Below, piece after piece: positions 5,224 through 64,000 of a stretch of DNA of 64,000 nt. A program made the position numbers and the translations under genes. Source of the stretch: Eledone cirrhosa. Taxonomy: Eukaryota. Positions within the stretch are counted from its first letter, which is position 1. Every line of letters begins with the position of its first letter. The stretch spans positions 256,246,001 through 256,310,000 of the forward strand of contig OZ024740.1 of assembly GCA_964016885.1 (NCBI GenBank). The letters are read 5' to 3'. The notes under the pieces are model-generated. The model ran no database searches, was not told the DNA's origin, and saw only the letters and a program-made list of their open reading frames with translations.

Positions 5224-5318
5224 AATGACAGATTAAAGTTTAAGCAAAGTATCGCTGCTTTCAGCCTTAACGGGATCTTCTGAAAAAACACACACACACA
5301 GACACATATATATATATG

Positions 5319-5371
<53 letters not shown>

Positions 5372-5374
<3 letters not shown>

Positions 5375-5851
5375 AGAATACAGGTAAAGAGGCAGGCTGC
5401 ATGGTTACTGTAAACAAAATGTAAGATGGTAATAGGGACGTAAACAAGAGAAGAAAAGTAGCCCTTCATCAGCTGTTAACTGCGGATCATAGATGTTTCG
5501 GCGCTTAAAACAAGACATCGATCGGCAGCGCGTCCGAGGCCTTTTATCCTTCAAAAGGCCACGAGGGAAAGAAATGATAAGAAAGAAAATAAGGGAAAGA
5601 GGAAAAAAACTAAGGGGGAACACAGGACAATGGCTCATGCAAGTGAGTAACCGAGGAGAAAATAGAATAAGGTATAACGTACCGATGGATATAAACCCGT
5701 GGTCATATAACTGCGGAGCAAGGTTTTTTCCGTGGCGATCTCAGTAAAGTGAGTGCAGAGAGAGCGAGAAGGATGGAGAAACCTGAAGTGAGAGGGATAG
5801 TGAGAGAGGGGAGAGAAGGGAAAGGGAGTTAATCCAAAAGGGGTTTACGAC

Positions 5852-5855
<4 letters not shown>
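5372..5855 (-). mobile_element. Non-coding retrozyme-like element, family A (single ribozyme copy)
   Basis: Bounded by (TA)n; pyrimidine-rich minus strand; permuted HHR; shared AACCAYGCAG motif near the 3' end (5397-5406). Confidence 0.55.
5462..5567 (-). ncRNA. Strand-permuted (pseudoknotted) hammerhead-like RNA, family A
   Basis: Minus strand reads GATGT-C-TTGTT-ttaagcgcc-GAA-ACATC-tatgatccgcagtt-AACAG-CTGATGA-aggg; GUC triplet, predicted cut 5514/5513. Confidence 0.75.
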
Positions 5856-42413: not shown

Positions 42414-44288
42414 CCCTCTTCCTGCTATATCAAGCGTTAACCTAATATATACCTTCCATATACTGTACCGATTGTGTTGTTATTTCTGTTTACCTTTTAT
42501 ATATATATAGCTGCCTCCTCTCTAGCCTATTTTCATACACAATCCTTAGAATTTGCTGTATAGAATTCACTTTCAATGCTTGACCGCTCCACCCAATCCC
42601 TCATTGTTCTACAGGCAAGTTCAGCCACCCCCACCTACCACCCACCACCATGAAAGATTTAATTGTGTTTACAAGAAATTTTGACCAATCCTTTTGACAA
42701 TTACAATCTTCCCATATGAGAAATTACCCCTGGAAAATTCGGCTATTTATTTACCACGCTAAAGATTCTAATTTAGTCCAGAAATAGCCGTCGAAACGGC
42801 TTGAGCTCTGCCGTCGGGGTCAAACATTTTCCTATTACCCACTCTACTAGCCTAAGTATTGAGTACTCTGGTGCGTTATGGTCCATCTGGCTCCTTACCG
42901 CACGTTCGTTTTATATATATATATATATAGAGAGAGAGAGGGGGGTGATCAGAGAGAGTGGGAGAGAGATTGAGAGAGAGGTGAGTGTGCGTGAGAGAGA
43001 CAGGTGTGTGTTTAAAATGTAAGATTAAATAAAAATGTTCATTTGTTTCTGTAATGAAGTGGGGAGGTGTGAGCTGGTAATAGCGACTGAAAGAGGCGTT
43101 GCCAACTGTAGTTGATTACACCATAAATTACGACCTATTGCATTAAAAAAAAATCTTTAACCCTTCCATGCTTCTCCTTTCTATGTCTATTTTTACTCTC
43201 TCTCCCTCTCTCACATGCTCTTTTCCCATCTCTCTTTCTCACGCGCGCGCGCGCGTGTGTGTGTGTGTGTGTGTGTGTGTGCAATAGAAGTTGTTTTGGT
43301 AAAAACAGGAGTAAGCAAGTGAAAGCTCTCTACATTCGTAGTGTGTAGTTGCGATGAAAATTCAGCCTGGCCCACAAGAAGAAGGGCATATCTTTCGCCT
43401 GCGGCATATCACAAAATCGGATTTTCGTCTGAAGATACAATTCCCATAACAACAACAAATGCAAGCATCATGGATTGCATAAGGGAACCGCTGAAATGAT
43501 TATAATGAATAAACGTATGTGTATATATATGTATATATATATATATATATAAAATATTTTATAAATATTTGACATAACCAAGGATAATATACCTTAACGG
43601 TTCAAGTTATCATTGGACTATATATGATAGCGTACCAACATTTTGGTACCTTTGAAATATATATAATAGAATAAATATGGTTTTATAAATATAGTTTCCA
43701 TTTGTTTAATATCATTGAATATTATACTCCAGAAAACTTGTCGAATGCTCTAAATCAGTTATAAACATTTATATTTGTTGAATTACCAACAAATTGAATA
43801 TCCCTTCTGCTTATATATATATATAGTGGTGGAACACTGGAAGGTAATATCCGTAGTGGTAGAGCACTCAGTCCAAGGGACGAGTTTGGTAGAAGTGGTT
43901 ACACAACAGTTAGTTCACCATACCGAGAACAATTGTTTCACTTTCGCGGATCTTCAGCTCGGGAAGTGTATGGTTATAGGAACAGGAAGGACAACCGTAC
44001 CAACGCGCATGCGCAGAAACTCGGTCACTTCGCACAGGCAATACGAGACTGCGTACGGGAGGTGTAAGGGAGATAACTGCGAAAGTCCGGAAAGTTTTTA
44101 GGTTGAAAATAAAATAAAAAATAAAAAATAAAATTACAAAGAATCAGTCCGTGTTTAGGCAATCACTATTGCGAAATCTCTTTAGGATAGTTATTCGTTC
44201 GTCAATACATAAGCCACACGTCGGATTTCCCCTTGCGTATGGCTTGGACTTAGTGATGGCTTTGCATTGAAAGCGAAGTTCACACAGT

Positions 44289-45651
44289 TTGACATTGTCG
44301 ATTTTTACCCGTCGATCTCAGAGACCGTTAAACAAAGCGTTGGACTTCGCTACCACTTATACCACCGTTGATGGTTTCGACATGGAAATCATCGCTCACT
44401 GCCGGAAAAAACGCCTCTTCAACTACGGAGTAACCTGGGCAAAGAAGTCTACATCTTCAGACCTGTTCGACGTCTCCATGGGATCGTTTGACAGTGCTGA
44501 CGTATGCGATTTGGTTGGCCTTTTTATCTTAGATATATTACGTGTTAGATTCCCGGACTTCCACACGGGCATATACCGTGACGATGGACTGACTTTATCG
44601 AGCCATAAAAGTGGTCACGACCTCGACCGGTTTAAAAAAGACTTAGCTTCCACCTTCAATGAGTTAGGCCTTAGCATAACAGTAGCCACCAACCTCTCTA
44701 GCGTAGATTTCTTAGACATTAATTTAGACCTTCGCACACACACCCACAGACCCTTCCATAAGCTAAACGAGAAACTAAATTACATTCACAAGGACTCATA
44801 CCACCCTCCCACTGTTTTGAGAAACTTCGTTAAGAATATCAGTACTAGAATCTCAAACCTCTCCTCTAATAAGGCTATCTTTGACAGGGCGGCACCCTAC
44901 TATAACACGGCGTTGGCTAACATCAGCTTCTCACAACCTATCACCTACTCTCCCACTAGCAACAACACCATTAAGAAAAGTAAGCGCATCAATAGACAAA
45001 CTATCTGGTTCTCTCCTCCCTTCTCACTCAACGTTAAAACCAATGTAGGAAAAACATTTCTAGCCCTCTTAGATAGACACTTCCCCATAGGTCATAAATA
45101 CCGCTCCATCTTTAACTGACACAAAGTTAAACTAGGTTACTCCTGCGCTAAGAACATGAAGGCCCACATCACCAGCAGCCCTAGGAGCAACACCCCACCA
45201 GGTGCTCTTGCCGTAAGCCTGAAGCTTGCCCCCTTCAACAGCAATGCAACACACCAGCTGTAATTTATGAAGCTGTGGTCACTTCCAACCGACCAAACGA
45301 ACCACAGGAGGTCAAATCCTATATGGGCATGGCGGAGGACCGATTCAAGGAGCGTTTCCTGAACCCCAGTCTACCTTCAGATACCCGGACAGACGTTCAT
45401 CCACCAAACTCGCGAGCCACGTATGGTCCCTCAAGGACTTAAGTATAAGCTACTTCATTCAAGGGAAAGCCATCACTGAGTCCAAGCAATACGCAAGGGG
45501 AAATCCGACGTGTGGCTTATGTATTGACGAACGAAGAACTATCCTAAAGAGATTACGCAATAGTGATTGCCTAAACACGAGAAGTGAATTTTTCACACGT
45601 TGTCCACACGTCTCCAAACATATATTGCATAAATACAAGACTCCGGACTGA
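44289..45651 (+). pseudogene. PLE RT plus GIY-YIG endonuclease, disrupted
   Basis: FDVSMGSFDSADVCDLVG, GIYRDDGL, FLD, YIHKDSYHPP, WFSPPFS; downstream CSC..CPL...C, VIY...YMG. Confidence 0.9.
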
Positions 45652-45834
45652 TTCTTTGTAATTTTATTTTTAATTTTTTTATTTTATTTTCAACCTAAAA
45701 ACTTCCCAGACTTTCGCAGTTATCTCCCTTACACCTCCCGCACGCAGTCTAGTATTGCCTGTGTGAAGTGACCGAGTTTCTGCGCATGCACGTTCGTACG
45801 GTTGTTCTTTCTGTTCCTATAATCATACACAGCC

Positions 45835-45872
45835 CGAGCTGATGATCTGCGAAGGTGAAACAATTGTTCTCG
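45835..45872 (+). ncRNA. Minimal type I hammerhead in the PLE terminal repeat (mirror copy on minus strand, 43923-43962)
   Basis: CGAG-CTGATGA-tctgcgaaggt-GAAAC-AATT-GTT-CTCG with palindromic stem III. Confidence 0.85.
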
Positions 45873-45919
45873 TTATGGTGAACTAACTGTTGTGTAACCA
45901 CTTCTATATATATATATAA

Positions 45920-46110: not shown

Positions 46111-46160
<50 letters not shown>

Positions 46161-46166
<6 letters not shown>

Positions 46167-46770
46167 AATATGGGGAGAAGATTACTGCATGGTTGCACAT
46201 GGATTACAAGTTATAAAATGAGTCCCTCATCAGTGATTTGCCAACGATCATTGGTATTTCATTGCATTAAAAATCATATACCTCACGTTGGTGCAATAAT
46301 AACTAAAATAAGTTATTAGGACAATTGAAACGCGTAAAGCGAGTGAGACAAGTAAACAACACAGGGGAAAGCTAACCGAAGATAGAAAGAAACACAAGCT
46401 ACATGGTTATTCTGTCAGCATAAGCTGGGTGAATATATGAGCGAGCAAGAAATAGACCTTCCGCTAGTGAATCCGATGTAAGAAAGAAGGAAGATCGTTT
46501 TCGTAGCGAACGGGGGGAAGTGAGAAGGGGAGAAACAGAGAGTGAGTGAGTGGAAGTGCGAGGAAGAGGTCAGTAGAGAGAAAGTGTTAACTGACATGAC
46601 AGAGGGGACGAAAGAAAGTAAGAGAAACAGAGAGAACGAGGGAGCAGTAAGAGAGAAATAGAGAAACACAGAATCGCAGTTTAGGTAAATATATGTGAAA
46701 AATATGGGGAGAAGAATACTGCATGGTTGCACATGGATTACAAGTTATAAAATGAGTCCCTCACCAGTGA
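46161..46770 (-). mobile_element. Non-coding retrozyme-like element, family B (534-bp period, about 75-bp terminal direct repeat)
   Basis: 46161-46236 is repeated at 46695-46770; (TA)n on both sides; permuted HHR. Confidence 0.7.
46222..46322 (-). ncRNA. Strand-permuted hammerhead-like RNA, family B
   Basis: GGTAT-A-TGATTT-ttaatgcaat-GAA-ATACC-aatgatcgttggc-AAATCA-CTGATGA-gggac; predicted cut 46277/46276. Confidence 0.8.
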
Positions 46771-47408: not shown

Positions 47409-49565
47409 CTATACACACACGATAGCAACTAACAGCGCAGCGATCGAATGTGGCCCAGCCAATGATCTAAAATGTCTTGCACAGAGTCGGCAACCAAAAT
47501 ATTCACTGGGAATAGTCGGCTGTGGTTGGAGTTCATGTACTTTTGCATGTCGCTTGAGCCCTCCTGCTGATTTACATTCTCTACCACATGCTTGGCAAGC
47601 ACGATGAGTAGCATCCCCAACAGCAACCTGGTAGTCAACCACTGGGCTTACTTTATGACTGCGAAGATGACTTTCGAGTCCAGCTTTGCTTAGGCAGAGT
47701 CTCGCACAGACGCTGCATGTCAGCACCATAGGAGGACCCTCGCCGTCTGGAAGTGCAACAGCAATGCCCTTCCTCACATCCCGCTTTACTTTCTCGTATG
47801 CGATTCGAGATGCCTCAAAGGCAACTTTTCCCTCATATACAGTCTTTCTCCATTTATTACGATCAGCAGCAATATTCTCCCATGTATCAGCAGAGATGTT
47901 AGCGTCTTTCAAAGAGGCTTTCAAGGAATCCTTATACCTCTTTTTTGGTTTATGTGGCGGTCGTTTTCCTTTAACCAACTCTCCATAAAAGAGTTGTTTT
48001 GGTATTCTCGAATCCTTCATCCTGGCAAGGTGACCACTCCAACGGAGTCGTTGCTTAAGCACAAGAGCTTCTATACTGTCACACATAGAGCTTTCCAAAA
48101 TATCGACATCACTGATGTGGTCCCCCCAGTGAACGCCATGGATCCGTCTGAGACACATCTGATGGAAACGCTCCAACTGCTTAAGGTGGTGTCGATATGT
48201 GACCCAGGTCTCGCAGTCATAAAGAAGACAAGAGAGCACACATGCCTTGTACACCTTTACCTTTGTCCTCCTGCATATGTCTCGCCGACCCCAGAGTCGC
48301 CTTTCTAGCTCTCCGAAAGCATCACTTACTTTCCTAATCCTAAGTGAGATTTCACTATCAAGGTTGCTGTATCGATTGACAGTGCTTCCCAGGTAGACAA
48401 ACTGATCAACCACTCCAAGTCGTTTACCGTACACATAGATATTTGGTTCAGTGTACTGCTTACCAGGGGCAGGTTGGTACATGACGACGGTTTTCTTGAG
48501 ACTGACAGTCAATCCTAGGGCAGTGCAAGCGTCAGAAAATGCATTCAAAATGTGCTGCATATCACTCTCTGTATGCGCTACAAGATCGCAATCATCTGCA
48601 TACAAGAGGTCTCTTATGATTGATGTAAATACTTTTGTCTTTGCAGCAAAGCGCCTGATGTTAAATATGCTGCCTGAGGTTCGATATCGGATGTAAACAC
48701 CATGCTCGCAATTCCTGAATGCAATACAGAAAACCATTTTAAAGTATATGGAAAACAGGGTCGGTGCTGGAATATCCCCCTGTTTCACTCCATTCTTTAC
48801 TGAGATAGGCTCCGACATGTTACCTCCGACATTAACCCAAGCCTTCATGTCATCATGGAAAGACCTAACTAAAGTAAGGAACTTATCAGGGCAACCAAGT
48901 TTCTGGAGAACCTTCCATAATGCATCTCTGTTAACAGCATCGAAAGCTTTTGTCAGATCGACAAAAACCTGATACAGATCCAAATCTTGTTCCATGCACT
49001 TCACCTGGAGCTGTCTAGCTGAGACGATCATATCAGTAGTACCGCGTCCAGCACGAAAACCAGATTGACTTTCAGGAAGAACACAATCTGCAATGTGTGT
49101 CAGCAGACGGTCCAGAAGCACCCTACATAAAACTTTCCCTATGACAGAAAGCAATGATATCCTGCCAAACAAAGAGTGAAGATATTGCAGGAATCTCTCA
49201 ACCCCATAATGTAGGAGCTCAGCATGTATGCCATCCATACCTGAAGACCTTCCACTGTTCAGCTTCGAGATAGCCACTGCAACCTCCACAAGCGTCGGAG
49301 GTTCTGCGAGAGCTACTTTCACAGGACTTTCTGGAATGAGATTGAGGAAATCTTCACTGACGACAGACGGCTGATTCAAAAGATCATCAAAGTGCTCTCG
49401 CCACCTTCGTAGAATTCCTTGTGAGTCACGAAGAAGTTCTTTGCCATCCTTGCTGCGAAGCGGTGTCACCAGAGAAGAAGACGGTCCATAAACCTCACGC
49501 AAGAGACTGTACAACAGCTTTGTGTTATTGGAATCTGACGCAGTTTGTATCTCACCAGCCTTCAC
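47409..49565 (-). pseudogene. RTE RT with C-terminal C2H2-like fingers
   Basis: LPESQSGFR, FVDLTKAFD, GVKQG, LLYADD, FVYLGS, RLRWSGH, RIPKQLFYGEL. Confidence 0.9.
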
Positions 49566-50784
49566 TCCACCACTGATCCTTCATCTGAGAAAGACTCCGC
49601 CTAATACGTGATTTTACATTCTTGAGTTCCTCATCCAACGTATTCCTCTCCTGTAGTTTTGACAGAGTACGCCTCCTATCAGCCAACAAGTCTTCTATAT
49701 GTACATCATACTCATTAAACCAGTCCTGATGTTTTCTCTGCACCAATACCAGAACACGCCTGCCTACATCATAAACCGACTTTTTAAGGGTCGGCCAATC
49801 CTCACCAAGATCTGCAGCCTGCATCTCTTCTTCCAATGTCCTCTTCACATTTTTATCCTTAAGACGAGCAGCATTCAATCTTTTGGGCAGGGCAACACCA
49901 GGAGCCCGGATTTTACGTTTAGTGATTAGTTTCACTTTTGCGCGTACCAGGCGGTGGTCCGTCCAGCACTCAGCTCCACGAAGAGCACGAACACACTGCA
50001 CATCCTGTCTGTCACGCATCCTGATTAGGACGTAGTCCAAAAAATGCCATTCCTTAGATGCAGGATGCATCCATGTGGTTTTGAATTTGTTCTTTTGTTG
50101 GAACATGGTGTTGGTAACACACAGACACAGCTCCTCACACATCTGCAGCAAGAGCATACCATTGTTGTTACACTTCTCCACCCCATGCCTTCCGATTACA
50201 TTCCATGTGTTAAAATTCCTACCCACTCTAGCATTAAAGTCACCAAGCACGATGACTTTGTCTGCCTGAGGGATATTTCTTAAAACACCTTTCAAGCCAT
50301 GGTAAAAGGACACTTTTTTTTCATCGATAGAATTCATAGTTGGAGCATACACACTCACCAGGGTCGCATATCTTCCTTTGTCCAGCGGAATTCTCATGGA
50401 CATAAGACGCTCACTAATCCCTACAGGGAATTCTTCTAATTTATTCACAAGAACAGTCTTAACAGCAAATCCTACCCCAGCCTCTCTTCTGGTTCCTTCA
50501 TCTCTTCCTTTCCAGAAGAATGTAGATTCTCCACAAAATTCTGTAAGATGACTATCTCCAGCTAACCTCGTCTCAGATAAAGCCACGATGTCAAGATCGT
50601 AACGTCGAAGCTCCTTTGCAACAAGAGCGGTCCTTCGGTCAGGACGCTCCAAGGAATCCCTGTCAAGCAGCGTCCGTACGTTCCAGCAGCCAAGACTAAA
50701 TGCCTTGTTTGGATCTATTACAAAGGCACGATGACGAGCGGGCCCAGGCTGTGATAACCTGGAGCCCCTGCCCTTATTTTCCAA
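49552..50784 (-). pseudogene. RTE APE endonuclease
   Basis: CWNVRTL, ALSETRL, GVGF, SVYAPT, LGDFNARVG, WHFLDY, TDH. Confidence 0.92.
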
Positions 50785-59337: not shown

Positions 59338-59569
59338 TCAACAAAGAGTAGAGAGTTTGACAACAGGTCGGTGACTTTACTCTAGATAGGGTAATGACAT
59401 GTGTAAATGTAAATGTGATGGTGGGGAGAGAGTGTAGACGTTATTGAGGTGGCGGGGGACAGTTGAGATGTATCTACATATATATATATAGTGATATGTA
59501 TATACATATATATATATATAAAATAAACGTGCTGCGGGGTTGCTAATGGGTTACATATGAATAAAGTTA

Positions 59570-59671
59570 GTCCTTCATCAGTGATCTTCCAACCATCATT
59601 GGTATTTCATCGCTTTAAAGACCATATACCTCCGGTTGGTGCGAGCAACGGCTAAAAAAAGTCGTTGGGAC
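59570..59671 (-). ncRNA. Strand-permuted hammerhead-like RNA, family C, downstream copy
   Basis: GGTAT-A-TGGTCTT-taaagcgat-GAA-ATACC-aatgatggttgg-AAGATCA-CTGATGA-aggac; predicted cut 59625/59624. Confidence 0.8.
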
Positions 59672-60204
59672 ACGTAAATAAAGGGGACACGAGTGTAAAC
59701 AAACAAAAATGGTGAAGCAACGAAAAGTGAGGAAGAAGGAGTCAAGTCCCAAATTTCTATGAATTTAAATTCGGTGAAATCGTGAACGAGAGAGAATAAA
59801 GACCATCAAACCTGGTTGGAATGTGAGCAAGGAAGGAATTCCGTACAGGTCTAACGGGAGGAAGAAGGGGTCTAGTCTGTGAATTCGGTAACCATAAGTT
59901 CTGTGAAATCGTAGACGAGAGAGAGAAAAAATGCTGACCGGCCTGGCCAAGCATGCGAAAGAAAAGAATTACGCACAGGTCAAACGGGTAGAAGGAGGAG
60001 GAGGAGAGGTAGTAACGGAGAATGAGTGAGTGAAGGGTGAGGAAGAGGCTAACAGAGAGAGTGACTGCTAGAGAGGGTAAAGATACAGAGAAAGAGGAAG
60101 CAGTAAGAACGAAATAGACGGGTCACAGCGGGGGAAAAAATATGTGTAAATATGAGAATAAACGTGCTGCGTGGTTGCAAATGGGTTACATATGAATACA
60201 GTTA

Positions 60205-60305
60205 GTCCTTCATCAGTGATCTTCCAACCATCATTGGTATTTCATCGCTTTAAAGACCATATACCTCCGGTTGGTGCGAACAACGGCTAAAAAAGTCGTT
60301 GGGAC
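60205..60305 (-). ncRNA. Strand-permuted hammerhead-like RNA, family C, upstream copy
   Basis: Same core as 59570-59671; predicted cut 60260/60259. Confidence 0.8.
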
Positions 60306-60380
60306 ACGTAAATAAAGGGGACACGAGAGTGTAAACAAACAAAGATGGTGAAGCAACGAAAAGTATATATATATATATAG

Positions 60381-62175
60381 AAGTAACACAAGAGAAGTAA
60401 CACCACAAGAGCATGAGGATAGAGAAAAAGCCCTCAATGCCCATATGACGATGTGGACAAATATAATGCAGCCCAACCAAAGGACTGCCAACAACTTCCA
60501 GGCCTGGAACAATGACGTGCCAGCGTTGTATGGGCTTCGAAAAGACCATAAAACGAGCAGTGACCCTGTCACAGGACCACCAACACGGCCAGTCTGTGGA
60601 GCTAACATTGCTAGTAACTACAGACTGGCCTACTTCCTCTCCCTGATCATACGCCCTATCATTGAAATGTCACCAGATGTATGTGACAGCACGGAGGACC
60701 TCCTCAGCAGAATCGGCGAGGGTAACCGATCTAGGGACCTAACAAACTGCTTAATAGGTAGTATGGATGTTGTGTCCCTGTATCCATCTACTGACGTGGA
60801 TTTTGCTGTGGAGAAATGCGTAGAAATGATCAGTGAGAGCAATGTTGAATTCCATGGGATTGATACCAGTGAGCTGGGACTCCTACTTAAACTTACCTAT
60901 AGTAATAATTATCTAGACACATATGACCTTAGCAACCTGTGCCCTACAAGACCAGCAAGAGGCAGACCAACTACCATTACCTCAATGGCCAAGAAAACCC
61001 ACACAGATAGATGGAACGGGTGGACCAGATCCATACGGACCCCAGAAAACCACGATGATCTAAAGAAAATGATTGCACATGCGGTGGGTGCCAGCATAAA
61101 ATTAACCCTTAAGGAACATATGTTCAAATTTAATGGAAAAACATATGCCCAAGAGGAGGGAGCAGCCATTGGTGTTAGCATTGCAGGCGACATAACTAAC
61201 CTATTCATGGTATGGTGGGACAGTAGACTTAAACTTAAACTTAAAGAACAATTAGAAGACCCCTTAACCCTGATAATGTACTCCCGCTACGTTGATGATA
61301 TAAACATCGTAGTTAAAACACCCCCACTAGAAACCAGTCAGGAATTAGAGAAAAACACAATGGAAAGCATCCAGCAAATAGCTAACTCCATCCACCAGAG
61401 TATTAGAGTTACTATAGACTACCAAAGCAAACACCCCAACCATCGATTACCTGTACTAGACACAGAGCTCTGGTTAGATACAATTAATAACAAGAAACAA
61501 ATCCTCCATTCCCATTATGCCAAACCCATGATTTCCAAATATCTGATCCACCGAAACTCAGCTGTTTCGGACCATACCAAAATCAACATACTGATTGCGG
61601 ATTTGGTACGGGTGATGAGAAACGTGTCCCGCGTGTGCAACCCCGAAGAACTAGAGAGACACATACAACACTTCATCCACCGTATGCAGTTCTCTGGTTA
61701 CAATCAGAGAGATGAAATCAGAGTATATAGAGGAGCCAGAACCAAATGGGAAAAAATGGTAAATAATGACACAAATGGGACCTGCCCCTTGTATAGGAGC
61801 AAATTTTGGAATAGAATAGAAAGAACTAGGAATAAGGCTAATAGAATAAACTCATGGTATGATAGCAATAAATACCAGAGTGTAATGTTCATCGATACAA
61901 CCCCTAGAGGTGAATTAGCTTACAAATTTAGAAGGGCCCTAGATAAACATAAACTCAATATTAAGATAGTAGAAAGACCAGGTACCTCCGTAAAAACACT
62001 AGCAAGACATACCCTTTTCAAAGACCTCCCTGTATAGTTAAGAAATGTATAATCTGTAAATTAAGCCCCCCTATTAACTGTAAAACTAGAAATGTAGTAT
62101 ATAGCATAAGATGTACTGAAGGACAATGTAGAGATAAAAATATAGTGTACATAGGTGAGACAGCTCGTAATGCTA
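60381..62175 (+). mobile_element. Penelope-like element, truncated at both ends (530-aa open RT segment 60445-62037)
   Basis: RPVCG, GSMDVVSLYPS, QEEGAAIG, YSRYVDD, LPVLD; then CxxC, VVY...YIGETARN (GIY-YIG). Confidence 0.9.
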
Positions 62176-64000
62176 TCTATTGACATCCTACCAGACTTAT
62201 CCGTGGGTAGCATGCCGAGCTACATCAAGGCTATGCAGTCCCACATCACCACCACGAGCGAAATTGCACATCAAACATATGATGGGAGAGAGAAAATCTT
62301 CAACGCTCACATGATGTGGACCGACATCCTAAAGCCAAACAGACGCACTGCCAACAACTTCCAGGCGTCTCACACTGGCATACCACCCTTGTATGGGCTC
62401 CGCAAAGACCACAAGACAGTCGACGACCCGACAACAGGACCACAGACAAGACCTGTATGCGGAGCAAATATAGCTAGCAACTACAGGATCTCCTACTTCC
62501 TCTCAATGGTTATACGCCCCATAATCAAGATGTCCCCAAATGTATGTGACAGTACAGAGGACCTCGTCAGCAGCATTAGTGAGTGCAACAAAAACAGGAA
62601 CCTATCCAACTGCATAATAGGCAGCATGGATGTGGTATCACTGTACCCATCCATTAACATTGATTTTGCTGTGGAAAAATATGTTGAGATGATCATTGAG
62701 AGTGAGGTGGAGTTCTGCGACGTCGACACAGACGAACTGGGCCTCCTACTTAGACTTACCTACGACACTGACTACCTAGACAGCCATGACCTTAGACGCT
62801 TCTGCCCCAGTAGACCCATAAGAGGTAGACCCCCCCCCCCCCACACACACACACACTAACCTCAATGGCTAAAAAGACTCCCATGGGAAGGTGGATTGGG
62901 TGGACCAAAGCTATACGGACCCCGCAAAACAATGATCAGGTAAGAAAAATGGTTGCACATGCAATAGGGGCTAGTATCAAAACTACCCTAAAGGGCCACA
63001 TATTCAAGTTCAACGAGAAGATCTACACCCAAAATGAGGGAGCAGCCATTGGCGTCAGCATAGCTGGTGATGTTGCCAACCTTTTTATGGTATAGTGGGA
63101 AAGCAGACTTAAAGATCTCCTTAATGAGAGCTCCATAGACCTCATCATGTACTCTCGTTACGTAGACGATATCAATATAGTTATAAGAACATCCCCACTA
63201 GAGAGCACTAACAAGTTTGATTTAGAACGTAGCACAATGGAAAGCATCCAGCAGATAGCTAATTCCATACACCAGAGTATAACTGTAACTATCGACTACC
63301 CTTCCAAACACCCCAACAATAGACTGCCTGTATTAGACACGGAATTCTGGATTAACAATATAGACGAGAGAGCCCAAATTCTCCACTCACTCTATTCTAA
63401 ACCCATGGCCTCCAAATACCTGATACTCAAAAACTCAACAATGTCCTGTATTGTTAAGTTTAATATTCTGATCGCAGATTTGGTACGAGTGATGAAGAAT
63501 GTGTCCCGCATGTGCGACCCAACAGAAATGGTAAGACACATCAAACACTTCATCAACCGCATGCAGTTCTCTGGCTACAACCAAAGAGACAGAGTCAGAG
63601 TATACGAAGGAGCCATGGAGAAGTATAAGACCCTCATAGAACTGGATAGGAAAGGAATTTGCCCATTATACAGGAGCAAATCATGGAATAGCTTAGATAG
63701 GGCTAGACATAAGATAGGGAAAGCCACCTCATGGTACGACAACCAGAGATACAAGAGTGTCATGTTTGTGGACGCTACCCCTGGAGGGAAATTAGCTAAC
63801 CAGTGTAGAAAGGCCCTGAGAAAGACCCACTTAAAGATTAAGGTGGTAGAAAAGCCAGGAACCACCATAAAATCCCTGATCAGCAAAACCTACCCTTTTA
63901 AGAAAACCCACTGTACTAATAGGAAATGTATCATATGTAAGGTAAACCCCCGAATAAACTGTAAAACTAGAAACGTAGTCTATAGCATAAGATGTACAGA
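62176..64000 (+). mobile_element. Second, diverged PLE of the same group; runs off the window
   Basis: Same RT motifs with a frameshift and stop; GIY-YIG begins at the window end. Confidence 0.9.

Follow-up and report, generated by a model that had tools for sequence, protein, structure and literature searches.

The window, by which we mean the whole 64,000-nucleotide stretch of Eledone cirrhosa DNA analyzed here, carries four copies of a hammerhead core in the block order S-G-C, in which stem II is split by a four-way junction. On sequence grounds, we consider it probable that this RNA is self-cleaving, that it was inherited from the 3' end of a Naiad retrotransposon, and that it now resides on short non-coding elements mobilized in trans. 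The motif is a real and abundant feature and represents a variant of the non-circularly permuted hammerheads, not a new class; its altered architecture and its host bear on an open question about Naiads.

A sequence-plus-pairing descriptor, which required U16.1-H17, GAAA and CUGANGA to follow the order S-G-C and stems I and III to form, matched the window at exactly four loci, all on the minus strand, against 0.03 matches per window in 100 dinucleotide shuffles. Each locus has the complete core, with U16.1-H17 between stems I and III, five of five pairs in both stems, and stems I and III crossing. These are the loci at which an earlier note on this DNA had located all core residues in a pseudoknotted order outside types I-III, and both statements proved correct. 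Two copies, assigned to family C, belong to a single element: one in its 3' repeat (59570..59671, predicted scissile bond 59625/59624) and one in its 5' repeat, 635 nt upstream (60205..60305, 60260/60259). The other two represent family B (46222..46322, 46277/46276) and family A (5462..5567, 5514/5513). Along the minus strand, the 59570..59671 copy reads X' (59671-59668), hairpin H1 (59667-59646), Y' (59644-59641), E' (59639-59634), the short strand of a putative kink-turn (59633-59631), IIIa (59630-59626), H17 (59625), Ia (59624-59618), a linker, Y (59613-59610), 11.1 (59609), GAA (59608-59606), IIIb (59605-59601), a bulge (59600-59598), GA plus 3b (59597-59595), E (59594-59589), Ib (59588-59582), CUGAUGA (59581-59575), 10.1 (59574) and X (59573-59570). 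Rfam reported no family at gathering level in the window and, at E≤10, chance matches only and no hammerhead model, in line with the partial or absent match that had been anticipated. Since standard descriptors and Rfam miss the motif, thousands of ribozymes per genome may be unannotated.

The order S-G-C is itself already published. Types I, II and III are nested junctions with the orders CGS, GSC and SCG, none of which is seen here. Eckert, Friedrich, Weinberg and Weinberg (2023) split the hammerhead into blocks S, G and C, and their types SGC and CSG cleave in vitro (PMC10085705). Type SGC (HRIMA-1 and variants) shares with the window copies the block order, the crossing of stems I and III, the short linker from stem I to the bases preceding GAAA, and a helix just 5' of the second strand of stem I that ties stems I and II together. 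Helix E, which is 94% paired and has compensatory changes in five of its six pairs, is probably the equivalent of this interaction helix. In type SGC, however, stem II is direct, and the molecule has its ends at stem III and after the interaction helix, whereas the ring found here has no break at that point and is instead opened within the strand of stem II; compared with the published text, the four-way junction and the kink-turn signature are additions. Furthermore, the 583 type SGC sequences come from metatranscriptomes, none being placed there in the genome of a known organism, in contrast to the thousands of genomic copies found in this animal. To match the published SGC pattern, a sequence must contain CGAAA and CUGAUGA(U)G and form a direct stem II, and the authors of that pattern assume that CUGAnGA plus its paired neighbours cannot be interrupted (PMC10085705). 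Among the 126 distinct copies in our sample (from 132 loci plus the window), 10 contain the core words and none passes when the published core-plus-stem-II pattern is emulated. The six-permutation scheme leaves out forms that open within stem II. The shortening of stem II to one pair has been described (PMC3088659), and hammerhead variants "containing additional helices" are cited elsewhere (PMC13725137). The suggestion of an undescribed architecture fell with regard to the block order and stood with regard to the split stem II and the animal setting: in the literature searched, with subscription journals outside its coverage, we found no description of a split-stem-II hammerhead, of a natural hammerhead containing a kink-turn, of this type of motif in an animal genome, or of a permuted hammerhead in Naiads.

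The split of stem II was assessed in an alignment of 24 non-redundant copies of families B/C and relatives, drawn from the 72 copies passing a 5'-edge filter; two fold-back or deleted copies were dropped, redundancy was cut at 93%, and locus L002 was replaced by the two window copies. A model comprising X, H1, Y, E, III, I and one 10.1-11.1 pair was paired in 90.8% of 816 cells, with two-sided changes in 21 of its 34 pairs, so that the pairing and covariation of the helices listed in the earlier note, and the replacement of stem II by a junction, were both borne out. A direct stem II, by comparison, was paired in 35% of cells, no better than its own slid controls, with two columns at 0-1 of 24. 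The score of the junction model was reached by none of 500 shuffles, and slid partners were only 29-49% paired; as the aligned rows are related, the shuffle test overstates significance and these figures are not probabilities. Y/Y' was paired in 93% of cells and X/X' in 83%, the latter value being partly selected by the 5'-edge filter, and the middle X pairs barely vary. Besides those in E, compensatory changes were concentrated in I (five of seven pairs) and H1 (four of seven), with two each in X and Y.

The stem II strands form one 10.1-11.1 pair and then helix Y, which is made with an upstream strand. In the earlier note, the bases before GAA pair with upstream sequence and those after CUGAUGA with the 5' edge; the helices are as described, but in the two GC-poorer families a 10.1-11.1 pair (A-U, G.U, U-A or G-C), present in 65 of the 72 copies, comes first, and this pair is missing from 7 of the 24 aligned rows. 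Likewise, there is indeed a hairpin between the two helices, H1, although it is not the unrelated sequence it was taken for: it belongs to the element and covaries. In the family A copy, which forms the same ring, 11.1 is paired with Y' and not with 10.1; the helix given there as AGCGC/GCGCU exists, yet probably in another register, because two of its bases also take part in the stem III extension and sister copies favour GGCGC/GCGCC.

Sequence and covariation together describe the following layout. The 5' and 3' edges pair with each other as helix X, which closes hairpin H1 plus one long hairpin consisting of helix E and stem III; the loop of the latter contains H17, Ia, Y and GAA, and docks via two crossing helices, stem I and Y, onto the strands carrying CUGAUGA and Y'. 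Because core, X, H1 and Y meet with 0-2 unpaired bases, they make up a four-way junction, which we infer to be stacked, with Y standing in for stem II. The molecule can accordingly be read as an SGC ring in which E' and IIIa are joined and the break falls within the strand of stem II. Its nested part (X, H1, E and III) is the predicted minimum-energy fold in all four window copies, and their folding z-scores are weak (-1.0 to -1.75).

A feature missed by the earlier note, as was the mobile element described below, lies between stem III and helix E. That note had emphasized a conserved AUGAU, a word present in 46 of 80 copies of a sample biased toward it; among copies collected with a pattern that omits AUGAU, it varies freely. 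What stays constant in families B/C and relatives is a bulge of 3 nt and then GA, with (G/U)A opposite to it. The sample covers 80 of 85 copies with intact stem III, selected without the 5'-edge filter; bulge length is 3 nt in all of them by construction of the class, and bulge sequence is variable. G1b.A1n was found in 74 of the 80 and A2b.G2n in 70, with A.U instead at the second pair in 8. A standard kink-turn has the same 3-nt bulge followed by G.A and A.G (PMC4382518; PMC5061560; PMC2790904), and the signature suggests that a kink-turn is formed here. Position 3b.3n was U.U in 35 of the 80 copies, C.U in 17 and U.G in 13; among the window copies, it is U.G at 59570 and 60205 and U.U at 46222. 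Box C/D kink-turns carry U.U at this position. Published work indicates that 3n=G or 3b=C lets a kink-turn fold in ions alone, while box C/D kink-turns need protein (PMC4382518). Family A (30 of 33 copies with stem III) lacks the signature and has Watson-Crick pairs plus a UAU bulge instead; in the 5462..5567 copy, a Watson-Crick GAUC/GAUC helix and a UAU bulge occupy the place of the tandem G.A pairs. A single molecule would require a sharp bend at this point, since the far ends of III and E are connected by both strands and E in addition runs on into stem I. A pairing of AUGAU with stem I was rejected, being possible in some families only.

With regard to abundance, loose core patterns gave 11,822, 18,802 and 17,378 matches in the 3.0-Gb genome, against 17, 34 and 3 in reversed controls. 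The family C carrier is a non-coding mobile element of ~860 nt (59506..60364, minus strand), flanked by (TA)n and made of two ~225-nt direct repeats, 94% identical (60140-60364 and 59506-59728), around a ~410-nt body; among 40 candidates scored, ~40 near-full-length relatives were found at 92-96%. The family B element (46152..46770, minus strand) consists of a 534-nt unit after an 85-nt partial repeat (46686-46770, matching 46152-46236 at 95%), with (TA)n flanks, and that of family A (5373..5854, minus strand; ends read by eye) lies between (TA)n runs. Carriers are 0.5-0.9 kb long and non-coding, with units of 534-635 nt in solo, tandem or inverted arrangement. Pfam recognized no family in four window ORFs, and the window copies have no Naiad-type ORF (N-terminal GIY-YIG, DKA motif and RT). 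Contigs from three runs of unclear kind cover the element, which shows only its existence outside the assembly. In metagenomes, none of the matches listed for a 17-base pattern (at least 119 loci) passed the core test. An older, decayed family retains the same G and C blocks, its 5' parts being mostly lost (loci L084 and L093-L098).

The ends of these insertions are of Penelope type. A 30-40-bp "tail" at one end, partial tandems and inverted copies are published marks of Penelope-like insertion (PMC8557442), and the carriers display all of them together with (TA)n targets. Such traits are, however, common to other Penelope-like clades beside Naiad. Copies in both orientations occur at 17 loci, and at 14 of these the 3' ends are offset by 35-58 nt, an offset that corresponds to the tail. 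Among 133 family B/C matches, of which some represent copies counted twice and 31 have no junction within 140 nt, the 3' end falls 14-17 nt past A9 in 32 and 52-86 nt past it in 59; overall, the motif lies 15-80 nt from insertion ends. The tail region of families A, B and C has in common an AACCAYGCAG-like word, 30-60 nt downstream of CUGAUGA (e.g., 59545-59530), which is possibly an enzyme-binding or priming signal. Two loci (L011, L051) are fold-back insertions with the inversion point inside the ribozyme. The carriers also resemble animal non-LTR retrozymes, which are likewise short and non-coding, contain a single hammerhead in each solo or tandem unit, and have been proposed as non-autonomous Penelope-like derivatives (Cervera and de la Pena 2020, PMC7229834; Li et al., bioRxiv 10.64898/2026.07.22.740005). 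The retrozymes described there, in contrast, have type I hammerheads and units mostly of 170-400 nt, compared with the pseudoknotted permutation and 534-635-nt units found here.

The link to Naiads comes from other species. In the published account, Naiads are reported to be without a canonical hammerhead, and some of their sequences are flagged "HHR_core" or "HHR_half_core" with neither an explanation nor a fold (Craig et al. 2021, PMC8557442). The Naiad elements described there have the same (TA)n targets, partial tandems, inverted copies and tails as the window elements, although they encode protein and the window copies do not, and several consensi, both flagged and unflagged, have the permuted layout at their 3' end. 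Inspecting the consensi by eye, we found every part of the motif, kink-turn words included, at the 3' ends of Naiad_Obim and Naiad_Ovul, with different helix sequences and with the same 8-nt H1 loop as family B. The split layout without a kink-turn was recognized in Amil, Aacu, Anas and EuTe, in one record that is probably Bfor and in one more Naiad consensus; Esco has the same order with weaker X and H1, and two nematode records (Nbra-3 and probably Hpol) read as CSG. Consensi with the layout span octopus, coral, clam shrimp and ctenophore, and the permuted layout occurs in at least 11 of 54 Naiad consensi, a visual count limited to those with CTGATGA or CTGAAGA unbroken on a line.

A computed check on 37 loci encoding Naiad-like proteins (L319-L355), found within prokaryote genome assemblies and most likely representing host contamination, yielded a sense-strand permuted hammerhead in 6, compared with none in 20 rounds of block shuffles. 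L319, where RT only was seen in the ORF, has the same split S-G-C layout as the window copies. The remaining five (L320, L325, L326, L335, L339) encode an N-terminal GIY-YIG, a DKA motif and RT. In two of them, the order is CSG and CUGAUGA is separated from the strand of stem II by two hairpins, which amounts to the same four-way junction in closed form (L325:4900-5050; L335:740-870 and 5300-5430, i.e., twice, in tandem repeats). This recurrence in a second permutation constitutes independent support for the junction. The other three have a plain CSG hammerhead with long stems and an interaction helix, next to the Naiad-type ORF (L320:4371-4440; L326:5159-5235; L339:546-610, lying upstream in the last case). 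Among the 20 loci with at least 500 nt of 3' flank, the motif was found in 5 and was not found in 15. All five CSG loci share the S-to-G-to-C ring of type CSG, for which two metagenomic sequences are in print, their host element not being known there (PMC10085705); that type is opened between IIIb and E, and the window form inside stem II. An antisense CSG-like match in L334, devoid of stem II, was treated as chance. Rfam detected no ribozyme family in 20 fetched loci, and repeats of L321 and L322 contain SECIS elements (Rfam), as in selenoprotein Naiads. No Naiad-like loci were found in viral contigs. Taken at sequence level, the permuted hammerhead is likely the missing self-cutting RNA of Naiads.

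In the E. cirrhosa genome itself, all Naiad matches are broken (longest open frame 298 aa among matches better than 1e-5), in agreement with a remark by Craig et al. on cephalopod Naiads (PMC8557442). No intact motif was found downstream of Naiad remnants (6, 20 and 40 partly overlapping loci), nor was any copy attached to a Naiad reading frame among the remnants examined; descent from Naiads therefore rests on the architecture shared with the Naiads of other species. Since all Naiad frames here are broken, the candidate driver would be a Naiad that escaped detection or a different Penelope-like family that acts in trans. This genome gave no match to a short pattern for the published Octopus Naiad core, and a protein search with an 85-aa Naiad remnant found nothing. 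Two matches were discarded: that of L303 is an antisense truncated family B insertion, and that of L367/L387, inside a coding remnant, was treated as chance.

We propose that the putative kink-turn bends E back along stem III and thereby allows the ring to close within one molecule, possibly with the aid of a host protein of the 15.5K/L7Ae family. Cleavage after AUA, AUC or GUC in each tandem repeat would cut read-through transcripts down to single units of 534-635 nt, a scheme proposed earlier for animal retrozymes and for other Penelope-like elements. The products would stay held by X, Y, E and III, a state in which re-ligation or the formation of circles would be favoured. An Anolis element was able to insert in vitro without hammerhead cleavage (PMC11167929).

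Three other readings were weighed against this one. The same ribozyme might work as a strand-swapped dimer, in which the loop (H17-Ia-Y-GAA) of one repeat docks on the junction (Y', Ib-CUGAUGA) belonging to the adjacent tandem repeat or to a different transcript; a sharp bend would then be unnecessary, and tandem copies would act as the gate for cutting. Copies are often tandem, the nested monomer fold is predicted to be stable even if the crossing helices do not form, family A retains just the 3-nt bulge, and some animal hammerheads cleave efficiently only as dimers (PMC7229834). In Naiad_EuTe, moreover, III (10 bp) and E (5 bp) appear by eye almost continuous, with a one-base bulge between them; a single molecule of this kind could hardly close, which argues for a dimeric fold in at least some lineages. 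On the other hand, a straight dimer would not need the kink-turn signature, which is kept in 70-74 of 80 copies while the adjoining helices vary; bulge and stem I keep a spacing of 9-10 positions in both forms, and many insertions are single-copy. We regard the dimer as unlikely.

The fold could instead be kept without cutting, serving the retrotransposon enzyme as a protein-binding or priming signal or providing a kink-turn platform like that of snoRNAs, a reading that would suit the position of the motif close to insertion ends and the in vitro insertion of hammerhead mutants of the Anolis element (PMC11167929). This we judge quite improbable: all catalytic positions, together with a cleavable NUH triplet, persist in divergent families and in different phyla while the helices covary, H17 is only A or C in all 72 copies, and related permutations cleave (PMC10085705). 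Least probable, and already largely refuted, is the view that this is type SGC (HRIMA-1-like) in its ordinary form, stem II being direct and the upstream pairings incidental. The block order, the short Ia-to-Y linker, the interaction helix and the presence of one direct 10.1-11.1 pair would all agree with it; nevertheless, the 35% pairing of the direct stem II, against 93% for Y/Y' and 83% for X/X', and the failure of all 126 copies to pass the published pattern as emulated do not.

Under the preferred reading, a self-cleaving monomer with a split stem II, the rare SGC and CSG ribozymes gain a host and a likely job, and their known numbers are multiplied. Naiads dominate many invertebrate genomes, and their reported absence of hammerheads and their partial cores now become directly testable. 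By its signature, the motif would also be a natural kink-turn-containing hammerhead that may be protein-gated. As a tentative generalization, non-circularly permuted hammerheads could be more than environmental rarities and serve much of the Naiad clade, ctenophores and octopuses included, as its standard terminal ribozyme. SGC, CSG and the present form would then be different openings of one ring, the present one splitting the supposedly indivisible CUGAnGA-stem II block by means of a four-way junction, and the octopod form would fold via the kink-turn and be switchable by host 15.5K.

Several neighbouring features of the window belong to other elements. A 5'-truncated Penelope-like RT (60352..62037, plus strand), considered and rejected as the carrier, is a separate insertion: full-length members of that family have a minimal type I hammerhead of their own at the end, and the permuted motif was found in none of eight long loci of that family (L043-L050). 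This family (window 60352-63998, plus strand; L032-L050) is a very young Penelope-like one, with a C-terminal GIY-YIG, (TA)n targets, a ~55-nt tail and the type I hammerhead in its terminal repeat, and 79 scored matches, of 30,036 candidates, show 93-96% protein identity. It is a candidate helper for the non-coding elements, and no end sequence shared between the two was seen. A neighbouring protein has its best named relative in Octopus vulgaris (67%). A further Penelope-like RT fragment (44271-45119) lies between 244-nt inverted repeats (window 43890-45906), each with a hammerhead-like core in classical order (43957, minus; 45839, plus). Finally, positions 27900-56500 are occupied by an L1/Tx1-like LINE array with units of 5.4-6.1 kb, and an RTE-like element is located at 47409-50784.
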